Shown here one piece after another: positions 1,750-54,362 of a DNA stretch of 64,000 nt (positions are counted from its first letter, which is position 1; each line of letters begins with the position of its first letter). The notes under the pieces are model-generated. The model made no database searches. It saw only the letters and a program-made list of their open reading frames with translations, and was not told the DNA's origin. Source of the DNA: Octopus vulgaris (lineage: Eukaryota); assembly GCA_951406725.2 (NCBI GenBank), contig OX597824.1:58156001-58220000 (forward strand), read 5' to 3'. A program made the position numbers and the translations under genes.

Positions 1750-3165
1750 ATCCCTCAAGGTCGAGGATGATGGTCTATGCGCAAATTTACTGGTGAGTCT
1801 GTAGGTGACCGATAAGACCAATTCTTGCTTGAAAAGATCGGTCACAATGCAGACATCTAGTGCCGGAAGGGAGAGTCGCACGTGGTTGTTATTGGCGCTC
1901 CTACGGTCGTCGTCTTTTCTCCTCCAGCTCTGCAGACCTTTTCGACTCGAAAGTCGCCGTTCCCTCATGGATGGTGGTTTTCCAGAGTGGTCTGTTTTTT
2001 GCCGCTTCCTCCCAGTTAGTGAAGTCGATGTCACACTTTTTGAGGTTCGTTTTCAGGGAGTCCTTGTAGCGTTTCTTCTGGCCTCCTTTTGTACGATTGC
2101 CGTCTTTGAGTTGGGAGTAGAAGATCTGTTTGGGAAGTCGTTCGTCAGTCATTCTAACCACGTGGCCGCTTCATCTTAGTTGACCTTTGATGACATAGGC
2201 TTCGATGCTGGTTATTTTTGCTTCTTGTAGCACGCTGACGCTTGTTCTTCTGTCTTCCCAGCTGATGTTAAGGATCTTCCGAAGACAGCGTTGATGAAAT
2301 TTCTCGAGCGTTTTCAGATGGTGACTATACGGGGTCCAGGTTTCGGATGCGTGAAGGGGGGTTGGAATAATGACTGCCCTGTACACCATGATGTCCCGAT
2401 CAGCAAAAACTCTTGTTCGAAGCTTGCCGAAAGCTGTTCCTGCACACTTCAGACGGTGTTGGATTTCATCGCTGAGGTCTACCTTTGCTGACAGATGACT
2501 CCCAAGGTAGCAGAAATGGTTCACATTTTCCAGTGGAATTCCTTCGAGTTGAATCGATGGCGGGTTGTCAACACGAGCATTGGGAGGAGGTTGGTAGAGT
2601 AAGTGAGTCTTCTTGATGTTGATGCTCAGTCCAAGTTTAGTATATGCATGATGAAAATCATTTAGGATCTGTTGGAGATGATCCTCTCTGTAAGTTGCTA
2701 CACTGTTGTCGTCGGCATATTGGAACGCTAGCAAGCTTCGCGCCATTGTCTTTGACGTACTTTTGAGGCGAGCGAGGTTGAAAAGCTTGCCGTCCATTCT
2801 GTATGAGATCTCGATGCCAGGTGGAAGGTCATCTCGTATGATGTGCAACACTGTCGCGATAAAGATGGTAAAGAGAGTTGGCGCTATCACGCAGCCTTGC
2901 TTCACTCCGGAGGTGACTTTAAAGGGCTCAGCACTGCCTCCGTCGGTCTGGACTCTGGCGTGCATATTGTCGTGGAGGAGTTTGAGGATCCGGATGAACT
3001 TATCTGGGCACCCATACTGAGCGAGAATATCCCAGAGGAGCTCTCGTGAGACACGATCAAAGGCTTTGGATAGGTCGATAAAGGCCAAATAGAACGGTTG
3101 GTGTTGCTCACGACATTTTTCTTGTAGCTGTCGCAGCATGAAGATCATGTCGACACAACCGACAT
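1741..3165 (-). mobile_element. 5'-truncated RTE-clade LINE (reverse transcriptase plus C-terminal C2H2-like motif), inactivated by stops
   Basis: One frame: DMIF..LQEKCREQ..AFIDLSKAFD..GVKQGCVIAPTLF..YADD..FCYLGS..QLR*SGHVVRM..RLPKQIFYSQL, ending CLHCDRSFQARIGLIGHLQTHQ* (stop 1787-1789). Premature stops at 2171, 1901 and about 1889. Both ends abut (AT)n. Confidence 0.93.
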
Positions 3166-3350
3166 GATATATATATATATATAGGTACATGTATATCAAA
3201 CTTTTCTTGTGCACAAATTATAAGTATTTCATCATTCCACACGCATACACACAAAGACACATTCTCGGGCACATACATGCACACAAATACCAGGCACACA
3301 ATCACTTGTTTCACATATCTATATATTAATATTGAATTCAAGAATGATTA

Positions 3351-3389
<39 letters not shown>

Positions 3390-3442
3390 GCATTTGTGTG
3401 TGTGTGCGCGTGTGTGTGTGTGTGTGTGCATGTTTACACACA

Positions 3443-3665
3443 CGAGACGGGGACGTTGGAAAGTTCCTGGGTTTGGGTAAAAATACAGGAGGATAAGTTA
3501 ATTATAATTTTATTCAACATATTTTCCTCTGAGATTCACACACCTATTGCAGAGGTCTTTCAGATTTTCCAAGCCCCTGTAAGAGATCTCGGAATGTTGT
3601 ACCTCGAACCAGGCCTTTCACAATTCCCTTAAAGCTTAGAACTTTTAGGGCCCCCCCCCCGAGTA
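3443..3665. mobile_element. Mariner-type MITE, about 220 bp
   Basis: Degenerate TIRs cgag..gggacgttggaaagttcctgggttt and aaagcttagaacttttagggcccccc..g, followed by TA; no coding capacity. Confidence 0.55.
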
Positions 3666-4317
3666 TACAACATTCATTTGTATGTCCTTATATGTATGAC
3701 GAGTTGCTACTCAGATTGATAGATTACTGGCTGTTTAAATTGCAGTTCTGATATAGCTTCCAATGTGGCCCAGTTGTAACCTGGCTTTCACTTCATTGGT
3801 GTCCATCAATGAAGTGAAATTACTGTGTTGGTTAGATTCATTTGGGGAAATCAGCTGTTCGCAAAACATTCTTGACTTTGTCTTGTTGCGAAAACACACA
3901 AGAACCCCACTCCCAGCCACCCACCTACGTCACTACAACACACGCATACACAAACATGCGTGCACCGCCACTATGTGCGTGCCTCTCTGTGTGTATGTAT
4001 GTGTGTGTCTGTGTGTGTTTGTGTGTCTGCGTGTGTGTGTGTGTTTGTGTGTGTGTATGTGTTTGTGTGTGTGTGTGTGTCTGATATAAAGATATAGACA
4101 GAACAATATTGTGTCTGAAAACGCCTTGTGTGGTCTGGGGTAGAATTTTACTAAATATTTGAAATTATCTTGATTATATATATATATATATGTATAAATA
4201 TAACACATACACACATCCTTACGTATGCACACATATATATATATATTTGTGTGTGTATGCATCTATATGGTTACATACATGTATACATATATATATATGT
4301 ATCTAACTCTCTCTCTC

Positions 4318-4880: not shown

Positions 4881-5098
4881 TTGATTGAGACCGTTTTATA
4901 CCCGGCCATTCAAAGTAGACCCCACACATGGTACTTGCAAGATGGAGCAACTGCTCATACCGCAAGAGAAACAATGCAGTTGCTATAGCGGTACTTTGGA
5001 GAGAGAATAATCTCCCGCTACGGCAATGTCAGCTGGCCTTCACGTTCCCCAGACTTGACTAGCCCGGATTTTTCCTTGTGGGGATACCTGAAAGAGAG
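4881..5098 (+). mobile_element. DD41D (rosa/Visitor-type) Tc1/mariner transposase fragment, catalytic part
   Basis: WYLQDGATAHTARETMQLL*RYFGERIISRYGNVSWPSRSPDLTSPDFSLWGYLKER; 41 residues separate the second and third catalytic Asp. Confidence 0.82.
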
Positions 5099-16271: not shown

Positions 16272-16371
16272 NNNNNNNNNNNNNNNNNNNNNNNNNNNNN
16301 NNNNNNNNNNNNNNNNNNNNNNNNNNNNNNNNNNNNNNNNNNNNNNNNNNNNNNNNNNNNNNNNNNNNNNN
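16272..16371. other. Assembly gap (100 N)
   Basis: Run of exactly 100 N, a typical placeholder for a gap of unknown size. Confidence 0.99.
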
Positions 16372-20275: not shown

Positions 20276-20654
20276 AATCAATCATATATATATATATATA
20301 TATAATATACGTTTGAATACAAACAAATGCATATAAATAACGGTGTGTGTACACACACACATGCACACGCACAAACACACACACGCACACAAACACCCTT
20401 CACTCCTTGTTTTGTTTGTTGATGTGTTTTCGTTAATTATTCTGGTTTATTAATTTAATTTTATTGTTGCACTCCACTACACTTTTGTTTGTTTGTTTCT
20501 TTCTTTCTCCCCTCTCTCACTATATCGCCTCTACTTTCCTGAATCTATTATTTCTATCAGTATATATTTATGCGTTTGTATGTGTGAGAGTATGTATGTG
20601 ATAGATATGTTGAATTTGGGCATGTATGTAGCCATATATGTATGTGAGTTTATG

Positions 20655-20715
<61 letters not shown>

Positions 20716-20718
<3 letters not shown>

Positions 20719-20881
20719 GGAGTAAGCACACAAGGTGGAAAAAAGAGTACTCAAATACTAGAGGTGAGAGTAATATGCATTCCTGTTCGTCGGACAGTTT
20801 TGTTAACAAAACTGTCGACGAACGGGAACGTGAAACTCTGAGTAACAGCTTTTGTTATATTTCTGCTGCTTTTAAAATAAA

Positions 20882-20882
<1 letters not shown>
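20716..20882. repeat. Fold-back element carrying the hammerhead; same family as 28912-29040
   Basis: Internal palindrome at 20780-20828. Its ends (taccggagtaa..aaggtggaaaaaagagtactcaaatac and tttctgctgc..aaataaag) match 28912-29040 in reverse. Flanked by (AT)n. Confidence 0.75.
20804..20857 (+). ncRNA. Minimal type I hammerhead ribozyme motif with a 1-nt core deletion, in the intron upstream of the Six1/2 exon
   Basis: taacaaaactgt-C.GACGA-acg(ggaa)cgt-GAAA-ctctgag-TA-acagcttttgtta: 12-bp stem I with one bulge, 3-bp stem II with a GGAA loop, self-complementary stem III actc-t-gagt, GUA triplet. Confidence 0.65.
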
Positions 20883-20916
<34 letters not shown>

Positions 20917-20993
20917 TGTGTGTGTGTGTGCACGCGTGTGTATGCGCGTGTATTTTCATTTCTTAATTATGATGTTGATGATGATGAAGTTGA

Positions 20994-21727
<734 letters not shown>

Positions 21728-28911: not shown

Positions 28912-28913
<2 letters not shown>

Positions 28914-29035
28914 TTTATTTAAAGCAGCAGAAAATTCAACTGAATTTTCTGCTGGTTTAAATAAAATATATTACTCTACCACTGGTATTTGAGTACTCTT
29001 TTTTCCACCTTGTTTCACATTTATGTGTTTACTCC

Positions 29036-29040
<5 letters not shown>
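28912..29040. repeat. Fold-back element, centrally deleted relative of 20716-20882
   Basis: Hairpin tttatttaaagcagcagaaaattca-ac-tgaattttctgctggtttaaataaa, then the reverse complement of 20716-20776. Flanked by (AT)n. Confidence 0.75.
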
Positions 29041-38162: not shown

Positions 38163-40234
38163 ATTTGATGAAAATAAGCAGTGAAAAGTCCCGCTTGAAA
38201 ATAAAACTGCTGGAAATTGAAAAATGTCTGCAACTCTCCCATGAAAAAGAAAGAGCAGACAAAGAAGCCTGGGCTATAGACAACATAAAATCTAACCCCA
38301 GAGCTTTCTACAAGTTTGCCAAAGAAACAGCTACGGTGCACTGTAGGATAGGGCCACTCCTTGAAAAAGATGGTACACTCACAGGAAATCCAATGAGGAT
38401 AAGTGAAATACTAAATGAGCAATTCAAGAGTATTTTCACTCCACCCCTAGGGCATTTTCAAGTCAGCAATCCAACTGACTTCTTTACCACTGCAGATATA
38501 AAATCAGAGGCAACGATGATTGATTACATCAATATAAAGGAAGACGATGTAATAAAGGCTATAGATGAAATGAACCCAAACTCAGCTACTGGCCCCGATG
38601 GATTCCCAGCAATCCTTCTAAAAATATGTAAGAGAGTCCTAGCAAGACCACTGCAGTTCCTCTTTCAGAGCTTCCTTGCAACTGGCAAACTTCCAAGAAA
38701 ACTGAAGGCGGGTAAAATATGCCCTATTCATAAAGGAGGTAGCAGAGCGGAGGCCAAGAACTACAGACCTATCTCTCTGACCTCACACATCAGCAAGGTC
38801 ATGGAACGAATAGTCAGAAGGAAACTAATCGCCTTCCTTGAAGAAAATAACTTGCTGCCTGACACCCAACATGGTTTCCGATCAGGAAGAAGCTGCCTAA
38901 CTCAGCTCCTACAACACTATGACTGGGTGCTGAAACAACTGCTCAACCACTCAAATGTGGAAGTGATATATCTTGACTTTGCAAAGGCCTTTGACAAAGT
39001 TGATCATGGAACGATATGTCACAAACTGCGTGATCTTGGCATAATTGGAAAATTGGGAGAATGGCTTAATGACTTTCTGAAGGATAGAAGTCAGGTGGTA
39101 GTAGCCAATGGGGCCACCTCAAATAACACGCAAATAGTGAGCGGTGTTCCGCAAGGCACTGTTTTGGGACCACTACTGTTCATAATGGCTCTCTCAGACA
39201 TGCCCTCAGCCACGCAGAGAGCCGCGATCACAAGTTATGCAGACAATACAAAAGTTTCGCAGGTAATACAGAACCCTGAAGATACTATGCACCTGCAATG
39301 TGAGCTGGACAAAATATACAAGGGGGCTGAAAAGAATAGCATGCAGTTTCAAGCTTTATGCTATCAGCATGCAAAACTAAATGCAATACCCAATGAATAC
39401 ACTGGACCTGGAGGGATTGCAATCCCAGAGGCACAATTAGTGCGAGACCTGGGTATTTACATGAGTAATGATGCAACCTTTCATGTGCATGTTGCTAAAT
39501 TGGCAATGAAATGTAGGCGGCCCACCGCATGGATTCTTACAGCTTTTAGAACAAGAGACCAGGAAACCATGATGGTCCTCTGGAGGACACATGTCCTAGG
39601 CCACTTTGACTATTGCTCTCAGCTATGGTCACCAACCAGTGTCAAATTAATCACAGAACTTGAGGCGATCCAACGAAGCTACACGAAGAAGATATCCTCT
39701 GTGCAGCATATAAGCTATTGGGAAAGACTCAAGAGATTAAGACTCTATTCCTTAGAGCGTTGGCAAGAAAGATATGCCATAATATACATCTGGAAGATCC
39801 TGGAAGGACTTGTCCCAAACTTTGGCATCGAGAGTTACACAAATACTAGAACTAGACGCCACTGCATAGTGCCAAGGACTCCAAATTTGCCATCAAGATG
39901 TAGGACAAGATACTGTGATGGCCTGGGCTTCAGAGGTCCACAGCTCTTCAATATCCCCCCGAAGGACCTGAGAGACCTGCATGGGGTGGGTGCAGATGTC
40001 TTTAAAATAAAAGTGGATCTCTTCCTGTCAGGTGTTCCAGATGAACCAACTTCACAGCAGGAGGTGCAGATGAGGGCAGCTGCATCAAACTCTCTCATGC
40101 ACCAAATGTCAATTGCTAAAAAGCATTCGTGAACTAAAATCATGTAGCAACACCGAATGGCGGTGCCCCAGCATGGCCACAGCTCGTGAGCTGAAACTAG
40201 ATAAAATAAAATATTAAATTAAAATAAAATAAAA
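38163..40234 (+). mobile_element. 5'-truncated CR1/L2-group LINE with a 655-aa open RT frame, 3' UTR and (AAAAT)n-like tail
   Basis: ORF 38165-40132 with SATGPDG, NYRPISLTS, QHGFRSGRSC, YLDFAKAFDKVDH, SGVPQGTVLGP, YADN, RDLGI, DYCSQLWSP and C-terminal DLFLSGVPDEP. No endonuclease domain. A-rich tail at 40201-40234. Confidence 0.93.
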
Positions 40235-52699: not shown

Positions 52700-53045
52700 G
52701 TATGTAGAAATTTCGTTCAGGCAATCGTAACAAAACGCAATATGAAATTACTCAGTATTACAAATAGTGTACTGACTTCCTATATCATGGCCGGATGTTA
52801 CGACTATCGTCTCTTCAGAAGAAATGCGTGCGCATGTGCGCCTGTATGAAATGTAAAAAAAACCAAAACAAAAAACGTTGGAGTAAAGATTGTTTGCCAA
52901 GATAACTTTGCATACCTGGTTTAGGACGAATTTTGCTGTAATTTAGCCCCAGGAGACATCGTCTCCAGCTGGCTATACGACACGAGTTGTGTCCTTATAT
53001 TTTTGAACAAGGGAATCTAGCACCTCCACTCAGCTCAAAACAATA

Positions 53046-53090
53046 TCTGTGTATTGCGATTTCCGGGTTATTTCTCTTCATCAGCACAGA
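53046..53090 (-). ncRNA. Minimal type I hammerhead ribozyme motif with intact core
   Basis: Minus strand: tctgtg-CTGATGA-agagaaataacccg-GAAA-tcgcaa-TA-cacaga. Stem I tctgtg/cacaga is perfect; stem II has one mismatch relative to the sister copy (ggg/ccc); stem III is near-palindromic; predicted cleavage triplet AUA. Confidence 0.7.
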
Positions 53091-53259
53091 ATAATTGTTC
53101 GGCTAGAGGTGGCGCTGCCAAATTCCTTTTCAAATATATAGAGATTTCAAAGTGACAACTAGTTACTGATCTATAAATTAGAAAATTATTAATTTTAAAT
53201 CTCACAACGTGAGTTATTCAGCAACAGTAATTTAGAGTAAAGATTGTTTGCCAACATAT

Positions 53260-53304
53260 TCAGTGTTGTTGAAGGGAAATAACCCGGAAATCGCGATACA
53301 CAGA
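53260..53304 (+). ncRNA. Hammerhead ribozyme motif, sister copy with mutated core
   Basis: tcagtg-TTGTTGA-agggaaataacccg-GAAA-tcgcga-TA-cacaga. Stem II ggg/ccc and palindromic stem III ATCGCGAT are intact; the core has two substitutions. Confidence 0.55.
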
Positions 53305-54362
53305 TATTGTTTTGAGCTGAGTGGGTATGCTAGATTTCTTTGTTCGAAAATATAAAGACACAGATCGTGTCGTATAGCCAGCTGGAGACGATGTCTCCCG
53401 GGGCTGAATTACAGCAACATTCGTCCTTCTGCGTATTAGTGCCTTTAATTCATTTAAGAGCAATCCAAACGAAGGATATTTATCAAAAAGAGCGGAAGAA
53501 TTCAAATATACATTGTGATATGATTTTATTATGTATTCGTTTTGTCATTGTTGTTGTTGTTGTTATCATTATGAATAATAATTTAGTTATTATTATCATC
53601 ATTATTTCAATAATAGATTGGTGGTTGACTTAACATGTACTAAATCAATTATTTCCGCCTTAATAACAAGCAACCGGCATGCACCGGCGCCCATCGACTT
53701 ATACACACTTATACAAAAACACGCACACACACACACACACACGCCTGCGCGCGCGCATTTGGTACGGAGAGAAAGAGAGAGAGCAGCAGGTGAAACGTAG
53801 ATTCAGAGAAACACCTGAATACTTTTACAGGTAATTCTGTCATGTGTCACTGTTCTAGCCATTAACTTGTACATCTTATCTCTAACTTTTGGTGTCTTTA
53901 AATATTGACATTATATACGGAGAAAAGGAGAAACCGGGTTTTTGTTTCTGCACGTTATATATGCGTGTGCGTATGTATGTATGTGTGTAAATATATGTAC
54001 ATTTATGTGCATATATACTTGTTCATGTGTTTACATGCACCTATATCGGTATATGTGTCTGTCTGTGTTGTGTGTGTCCAGCATCTATGTCCATAGGCTT
54101 ACATAAGCATAAATGGAGCCTGTATACAAACACACTCACACCCACACGCACCTATATACACCTACCTCCGCGCACAAACGCATGTACACTCACACATAAA
54201 TTTGTTGCAACACCCACACAGAATGTAACATTCATCATCCCACGTTATTTCCTCTTGTTTTTCTCCACTCGGTAGCGGTAGTAATATACAAATATAGATA
54301 TATATATATATACACACACATATATACATATATGTATGTATATATACATATTCATATATATG

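Follow-up and report, generated by a model that had tools for sequence, protein, structure and literature searches.

Organization of the Six1/2 locus

The stretch of Octopus vulgaris DNA analysed here (the window, 64 kb) carries on its forward strand an exon of Six1/2 that encodes a SIX domain and a homeodomain (Table 1). The exon contains an ETSY tetrapeptide, which we take to be a mark of Six1/2, and its 3' end probably lies at 21721, judging from a GTAAGT at 21722. In the intron upstream of this exon, we found a 167-bp element at 20716-20882 placed between two (TA)n tracts, and a second insertion of the same lineage is located further downstream in the window.

Table 1. Coordinates of features in the window (strand relative to the forward sequence)
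Feature	Position	Strand	Basis
Left (TA)n tract, insertion target	20659..20716	.	Sequence; (TA)n preference of Hydra PLEs (PMC8557442)
Tail	20717..20777	-	Alignment to natural copies; on the inverted arm
Inverted (mirror) arm: 5' half of hammerhead, CCGACGA core	20778..20804	-	Sequence comparison
Type I hammerhead remnant	20804..20857	+	Sequence, folding; stem I and stem III letters as in Hydra-2_aMil
Sense arm, 3'-terminal 78 nt of pLTR	20805..20882	+	Alignment to natural copies
Right (TA)n tract	20883..20913	.	Sequence
Branch site, pyrimidine tract, acceptor AG	21037..21066	+	Motif scan; RNA-like contigs from 21067
Six1/2 exon, SIX domain and homeodomain (probable 3' end)	21067..21721	+	Pfam SIX1_SD (E=3.9e-50), Homeodomain; ORF
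Second insertion, same lineage	28913..29038	.	Inverted, one-sided tail, in (TA)n; alignment

The position of the acceptor was examined with two runs classified automatically as RNA-like (X13 and X16) and two DNA runs. The contigs started at 21067 with loose ends of about 255 nt in both RNA-like runs, and they continued through the end of the intron, to 20945, in both DNA runs, which supports an acceptor at 21066/21067. The AG of the acceptor has its G at 21066, 209 nt beyond the last base of the hammerhead motif (20857), in agreement with the distance of about 210 nt given in an earlier note on this DNA. The best match to a branch site predicted the branch A at 21040, and no AG was present between 20989 and 21064. 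The distance from this predicted branch A is 158 nt to the end of the element and 195 nt to the notional cut, so the description of the motif as lying near the branch point was not upheld.

No contig bridged the element and the exon; the contigs of runs X2 and X5 broke at the flanking repeats, where other copies swamp them, and the RNA depth was zero at 20932-20958 and 21013-21039, which is not evidence of absence. We also observed that the acceptor at 21067 was joined to at least two different upstream sequences in the RNA-like contigs; judged by reading frame, one of them would contribute an acidic peptide in frame, and the other would generate an ATG at the junction. These junctions suggest more than one upstream exon. 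A search of the window with the loose ends revealed no upstream exon, the one match with three mismatches being at chance level, and no credible match was found in 148 loci (200 kb upstream included) or genome-wide. A 100-N stretch (a gap or withheld sequence) at 16272-16371, which begins 4.7 kb before the Six1/2 exon, may hide an upstream exon.

Overall structure of the element

The RNA of the element folded back on itself above chance, with a z-score of -4.9 on the sense strand (0/200 shuffles) and of -6.1 against shuffles on the antisense strand. In the genome, a pattern that fixed both flanks of the hammerhead core matched 670 sites, and the reversed-pattern control matched none. The fold-back element that the earlier note had counted as the second in the window is thus real; what had been missed is its identity as the end of a Penelope-like element (PLE).

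The two arms of the element meet at a palindrome centre between 20804 and 20805. The sense arm stops at the family terminus without a tail, and its alignment with the natural copy L076 revealed 0 substitutions and 2 indels over 77 columns. The mirror arm, which had been correctly read as CCGACGA on the minus strand, is joined to the tail by an internal deletion of approximately 51 nt, and since it lacks both GAAA and stem III, it holds no antisense ribozyme. The tail corresponds to the first ~71 nt of the element 5' UTR, although the version in the window has 61 nt owing to an 11-nt deletion and a 1-nt insertion. No tandem repeat of the element was found in the 64-kb window, which contains a single sense copy. 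The insertion at 28913-29038 is truncated so far that the hammerhead is gone; its letters are nearer to a young sister family than to the old family of the window copy, both of which are described below.

Parent element and its probable placement in the Hydra clade

Several copies of the old family extend upstream into a shared AT-rich body. We found C-terminal ORF fragments upstream of the old-family pLTR in seven loci (L091, L093, L095, L110, L119, L127 and L128), and the longer copies were colinear with reverse transcriptase (RT) and C-terminal endonuclease fragments, in which the motifs YRDD, SNH, WFN, CxCx5C, a GIY-YIG-like VY..YTG and CxxC..CxH were read by eye; CxCx5C and CxxC...CxH were both present in the L091 and L093 fragments. 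A protein search, in which the best 150 of 10,315 candidates were scored, revealed older copies (64-81% identity) together with a young family of very large size (about 66% identity), in which the open frames reach 727-757 codons.

The organization of an intact unit was evident from the young locus L122, in which a pLTR at 1617 is followed by a 727-aa ORF (1782-3962), a 1-kb 3' UTR and a second pLTR at 4978; the two pLTR repeats are 99.8% identical, and the unit is approximately 3.36 kb long. The L122 pLTR showed 86% identity with the sense arm of the window copy, and the identity over the tail was 92%. The same ribozyme occurs in each pLTR of the intact L122 and L123 elements, where the tail sequence directly follows the upstream pLTR and runs into the 5' UTR and the ORF; therefore, the tail represents the beginning of the unit. 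The 727-aa protein of L122 contains RWK, DKT, YRDD, CxCx5C, CxxC and CxH, and its homologues are proteins of about 700 aa (43-58% identity among the 120 listed), of which P0002 carries PF01541. Neither the 727-aa ORF nor any of four fragments from the old family matched a Pfam family, so the RT and GIY-YIG assignments are based on the motifs read by eye together with the homologues.

The marks of the Hydra clade given in section 11 of PMC8557442 are RWK, DKT, CxCx5C, CxxC and CxH, and the same source describes insertion into (TA)n by Hydra PLEs, with inverted 5'-truncated copies and one-sided tails as features of PLEs. RWK, DKT, CxCx5C and CxxC/CxH around E and N were all found here, as were (TA)n tracts on both flanks, a pLTR tied to an RT and GIY-YIG ORF, partial tandems, inverted 5'-truncated copies and a one-sided tail. 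From this sequence evidence, the family likely belongs to the Hydra clade. The 167-bp element is very probably the 5'-truncated and inverted-duplicated 3' end of a PLE, likely of the Hydra type, inserted in a (TA)n tract of the Six1/2 intron with a hammerhead predicted to be inactive. We also observed more distant Hydra-like ORF fragments at L096:5536-5992 and in a second tblastn match of L127 (~35%). The genome, as far as these sequences indicate, contains further PLE families.

Hammerhead remnant in the window copy

The hammerhead motif reported for the sense strand was confirmed from the sequence in its stems, GAAA and cut site. Stem I is formed by 20804-20815 and 20845-20857 and has the 12 pairs previously claimed, but it is not uninterrupted, as C20849 is bulged. 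Stem II is ACG-GGAA-CGT at 20822-20831 with a GNRA loop, the adjoining GAAA (G12-A13-A14-A15.1) is intact at 20832-20835, and the 10.1-11.1 pair is A10.1-U11.1. U16.1 (20843) and A17 (20844) agree with the U16.1-H17 consensus, and the notional cut falls between 20844 and 20845. In a constrained fold of 20804-20857, the three helices were able to pair and their ends met in stem I, with a free energy of -8.1 kcal/mol. The core at 20816-20821, however, is CGACGA, which has 6 nt in place of the seven of C3-U4-G5-A6-N7-G8-A9. The core had rightly been read as one base short, so the fold cannot be called complete, as the earlier note had it; moreover, the element as a whole is predicted to fold into a hairpin with the inverted arm.

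The palindromic stem III spans 20835-20843 with CTC-T-GAG at 20836-20842. A stem of four base pairs closed by a 1-nt loop is impossible in an RNA monomer, so the letters actc-t-gagt stand, whereas the 4-bp monomeric stem III drawn from them does not. Stem III would be either a 3-bp helix with a triloop or an 8-bp intermolecular helix. The Rfam hammerhead models gave no match at the gathering score across the window, and no hammerhead was among the 36 matches at E<=10 in 20600-21000. Weak matches to Rfam miRNA models, far under their gathering scores, were rejected as hairpin or microsatellite artefacts.

Predicted folding and accessibility

All folding values given here describe equilibrium secondary structure only. 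The predicted structure of the whole element was not a hammerhead but a hairpin of 20780-20804 with 20805-20828, and the predicted pair probabilities of stem III in the monomer were 0.01-0.02. The predicted cost of forming all hammerhead helices was +3.0 kcal/mol for the motif alone, +26.6 kcal/mol in the element and +23.6 kcal/mol in 471 nt of intron context, and the hammerhead had predicted probabilities of 1.7e-19 in the element and 2.5e-17 in the intron context, so the motif is predicted to be inaccessible in both. Sequestration by the inverted arm was predicted to amount to approximately 24-27 kcal/mol, independent of the missing base.

Co-folding of two window motifs resulted in a predicted double hammerhead with an 8-bp intermolecular stem III, and a natural CCGACGA copy and a young copy likewise gave an 8-bp intermolecular stem III in their predicted co-folds. 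Where helix III is small and palindromic, PLE hammerheads are considered to work as dimers supplied by tandem pLTRs (PMC4209133, PMC6765202); for a Schistosoma PLE, no detectable cleavage by the single minimal hammerhead and weak cleavage by dimers have been described (PMC4209133). In the 64-kb window, no second sense copy was found that could serve as a dimer partner. The hammerhead in the window is thus faced with three independent obstacles, namely, the missing core base, the predicted sequestration by the mirror arm and the lack of a dimer partner in the window, and it is predicted to be inactive.

Genomic copies and the state of the core

A DNA search of the 2.8-Gb genome returned 1,509 first-look candidates, and among the best 40, which were scored, the best non-self matches were 78-96% identical. 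The earlier note had suspected a U4C core variant in the family and had left the choice between CUGACGA and CCGACGA to a consensus. In a hand tally of 100 listed sites of the 670, CCGACGA was present in 65, and position 4 was C in 87 and T in 9; CCGACGA is accordingly the majority core among the listed sites, and the U4C variant is borne out. CCA, the change of the same CpG on the other strand, was found in 7 of these 100 sites and is about as frequent as T, in keeping with a CCGACGA master that decayed neutrally at the CpG and not with selection for U4. None of the 100 listed sites has a 6-nt core, and the 6-nt core of the window occurs at only two sites genome-wide, the window and L164, which is an older, different subfamily. 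This points to decay, and the loss of one base noted for the window copy either took place after insertion or reflects an error in a single assembly.

The architecture of the copies was compared in a sample of 30 loci taken by genome position, which represent 28 insertions. An inverted arm was located within 16 nt of stem I in 18 of the 28; by script call, 16 of these 18 had the tail on exactly one arm, two had it on neither and none had it on both, and the L026/L027 locus shows part of the tail on both arms. As most sampled insertions combine an inverted arm with a one-sided tail, the window copy has the commonest form of the family. The spacers at the palindrome centre vary from copy to copy (0-16 nt), the arms are asymmetric, and the 5' ends form a ladder from the base of stem I to the ORF. 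TA runs were found downstream in 26 of the 30 loci by a loose script test, a count that is given without a background rate for a TA-rich genome.

It could be argued that the family is a self-propagating non-autonomous element, either a MITE-like palindrome or a non-LTR retrozyme, as most sampled copies are short, palindromic and TA-flanked and as animal retrozymes have been proposed to stem from PLE pLTRs (bioRxiv 10.64898/2026.07.22.740005). However, the variable centres and the ladder of 5' ends reaching the ORF fit independent truncation events and not the amplification of one unit, the arms being asymmetric as well, and the window copy lies outside any tandem array and so falls outside the definition of a retrozyme as tandem short hammerhead units. 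We consider self-propagation very improbable and retain the truncated PLE end.

In both families (L031-L060 and the young-family sites), the inversion centres were clustered a short way 5' of stem I, in many cases on a short self-complementary 4-mer. Inverted pairs at fixed spacings were also present among the 100 listed young-family sites, with five pairs 8 nt apart and three pairs 15 nt apart. The clustering and the recurrent spacings suggest that copies are joined there by fold-back or microhomology, a possible clue to the origin of PLE inverted repeats.

Comparison with the young sister family

In the young family, for which 3,444 sites were matched, 99 of the 100 listed have the core CTGATGA, in the same frame as the old-family core, and the hammerhead has a GCAA loop, an A at the centre of stem III and an A-A mismatch at 10.1-11.1. 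The young copies are 97-99.8% identical, and the 727-aa ORF is intact (L122:1617-5057, G000:C3:18123000-18130500). Judging from these sequences, this Hydra-type PLE family is possibly still active. Most of the differences between the two families concern the bulge of stem I, the GNRA loop, N7 and the stem III centre, and the CCGACGA and CTGATGA cores are two CpG-type transitions apart.

These data bear directly on whether the likeness to a hammerhead is coincidental and the family motif was never a ribozyme. Such a view could draw on the absence of an Rfam match to the window motif, on a family core off consensus at U4 and on the covariation count, which had no usable signal (8/500 shuffles in a 10-row alignment, three rows of which are not full hammerheads). 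The view is nevertheless at odds with the sister family, which has CTGATGA in the same frame, with the confinement of most family differences to the positions named above and with a stem III palindrome common to the published coral and sea cucumber Hydra hammerheads (PMC8557442, File S2), and we regard its probability as practically negligible. The window motif is accordingly treated here as the remnant of a PLE hammerhead.

We also compared the ORFs in a tree of 21 ingroup rows and five outgroups taken from the homologues; L123 and L124 (near-duplicates) and L093, L094 and L096 (<100 residues) were omitted. ORF lineages with a CC core were separated with 97-100% support (L128; L119 + L127; L091 + L095). 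The root fell among the young copies with 43% support, and thus neither a derived U4C nor a reversion to U4 is supported. We tentatively propose, at somewhat less than even probability, that several diverged lineages of this octopus Hydra-type retrotransposon had the U4C core in their working master copies and multiplied, to hundreds of copies or more, with a weakened hammerhead acting as a dimer, beside a young sister family with canonical CUGAUGA and thousands of copies.

The 53-kb hammerhead family and other features of the window

The window contains a further hammerhead family near 53 kb, and the claims that its sequence differs from that of the element and that at least two ribozyme families are present both proved correct: the best shared match was 13 nt (E = 0.08), and the 53-kb family is separate and multi-copy (2,371 candidates in the genome search, of which the best 40 were scored). 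Its hammerhead (window ~52850-53450) combines a CTGATGA core with a palindromic stem III of its own, and a direct repeat of approximately 350 bp is present in locus L161. No tblastn match to the Hydra ORF was found within 1.5 kb in any of 15 loci examined. The 53-kb family may be a non-LTR retrozyme. Counting the young sister, hammerheads of three or more sequence types, belonging to two unrelated families, are present in the genome. LINE-type RT ORFs were also recognized by eye in the window at 38165-40132 (+, 655 aa) and 2171-3214 (-, 347 aa).

Comparison with known systems

The family resembles the Hydra-clade PLEs described by Craig et al. 2021 (PMC8557442; Hydra-2_Amil, Hydra-1/2_Ajap and Hydra-1_Obim) in its single ORF with RWK, DKT and a CxCx5C linker, its C-terminal endonuclease with CxxC and CxH, its (TA)n targets, the sense hammerhead near the 3' end, and the inverted 5'-truncated copies with a one-sided tail. 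Both the ctgt/acag stem I and the actc-N-gagt stem III recur in the Hydra-2_aMil hammerhead of File S2 of that paper. In contrast, the Hydra-1_Obim hammerhead from Octopus bimaculoides in the same file is unlike that of the window family, which is thus another family, and all six Hydra rows compared from it begin with ctga, whereas the window family has CCGA. The source describes PLE tails of 30-40 nt and Hydra units as "generally <3 kb", compared with a tail of ~71 nt and a unit of ~3.4 kb here; unlike the published elements, the window copy is a non-coding remnant.

With the PLE hammerheads of PMC4209133, which have a small palindromic helix III, the window motif shares the type I topology and the predicted dimer fold, and the copies described there are likewise mostly solitary or on opposite strands, from truncated elements. 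The window motif differs in its 3-bp stem II, GNRA loop, long stem I and A10.1-U11.1 in place of G10.1-C11.1, in the U4C of its family and in the core base missing from the window copy itself. The same core substitution is found in a viroid hammerhead (Perreault et al. 2011, PMC3088659), for which considerably lower activity in vitro with retained infectivity was reported; in the viroid U4C is a variant, but here the majority of a genomic retrotransposon family carries it.

Hydra PLE hammerheads, one from Octopus included, have already been published (PMC8557442). In the literature searched, which covered PLE hammerhead variants and Repbase Hydra hammerheads incompletely, we found no report of the window family or its U4C majority core and none of U4C in a retrotransposon. 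U4C may already be among the PLE hammerhead variants of Lunse et al.

Consequences for Six1/2

A self-cleaving motif in this intron had been suggested to affect Six1/2 splicing or transcript stability, in which case the element, or an allele with a full core, would act from the intron as an active ribozyme and adjust the splicing or the mRNA level of Six1/2. The element does lie on the sense strand of a supported Six1/2 intron, 209 nt from the acceptor, and its predicted motif shares the intronic sense-strand position with the HDV-like CPEB3 ribozyme and the human RECK and C10orf118 hammerheads. The CPEB3 ribozyme tunes its host gene (PMC10274809), the weaker U4C viroid hammerhead still supports infectivity (PMC3088659), and alleles of other individuals could differ from the window copy. 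The CPEB3, RECK and C10orf118 ribozymes, however, are conserved and active as monomers, whereas the window holds one decayed end of a multi-copy transposon, whose core is broken and whose arms carry unselected indels. The predicted sequestration of 24-27 kcal/mol would persist with the missing base restored, the window offers no second sense copy for a dimer, and A10.1-U11.1 replaces the usual G-C pair. In addition, hammerhead cleavage in an intron left splicing intact in a published test, unlike the fast HDV ribozyme (PMC2995048). All five RNA-like contigs over the core (three in X13 and two in X16) carry an extra C and thus stem from other copies or alleles. Thousands of intact canonical sister copies are present genome-wide, so closeness to one gene needs no special explanation. 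A working ribozyme at this site has, in our estimate, only a very slight chance of being real; with the predicted branch A 195 nt away, a regulatory role on Six1/2 is unlikely, and the suggested effect is not sustained. The window locus is a decayed transposon end and is ordinary in itself.

In the proposed mechanism, two tandem pLTR hammerheads of the parent element would pair through the palindromic stem III, cleave as a dimer and process the precursor RNA. Reverse transcription would run beyond the 3' end into the 5' UTR and so produce the tail, and many copies would end a short way 5' of stem I and acquire an inverted arm. In the window copy, insertion would have been followed by the loss of one base from the core and of a piece of the mirror arm. 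During transcription of the pre-mRNA, the mirror arm would emerge before the ribozyme and base-pair with its 5' half, such that the intron would be spliced carrying an inert hairpin.

Implications

The role of the hammerhead in PLEs is still described as unclear (PMC8557442). If the tentative reading of U4C as a working master state is true, the U4C and CUGAUGA families would be a natural pair for testing ribozyme speed in Penelope retrotransposition. With a near-identical, ORF-intact canonical family beside older relatives that amplified with a U4C core, this genome allows cleavage rate and transposition success to be compared directly. For genome scans, the result is a caution, as hammerheads near developmental genes are to be expected by the thousand in this genome.
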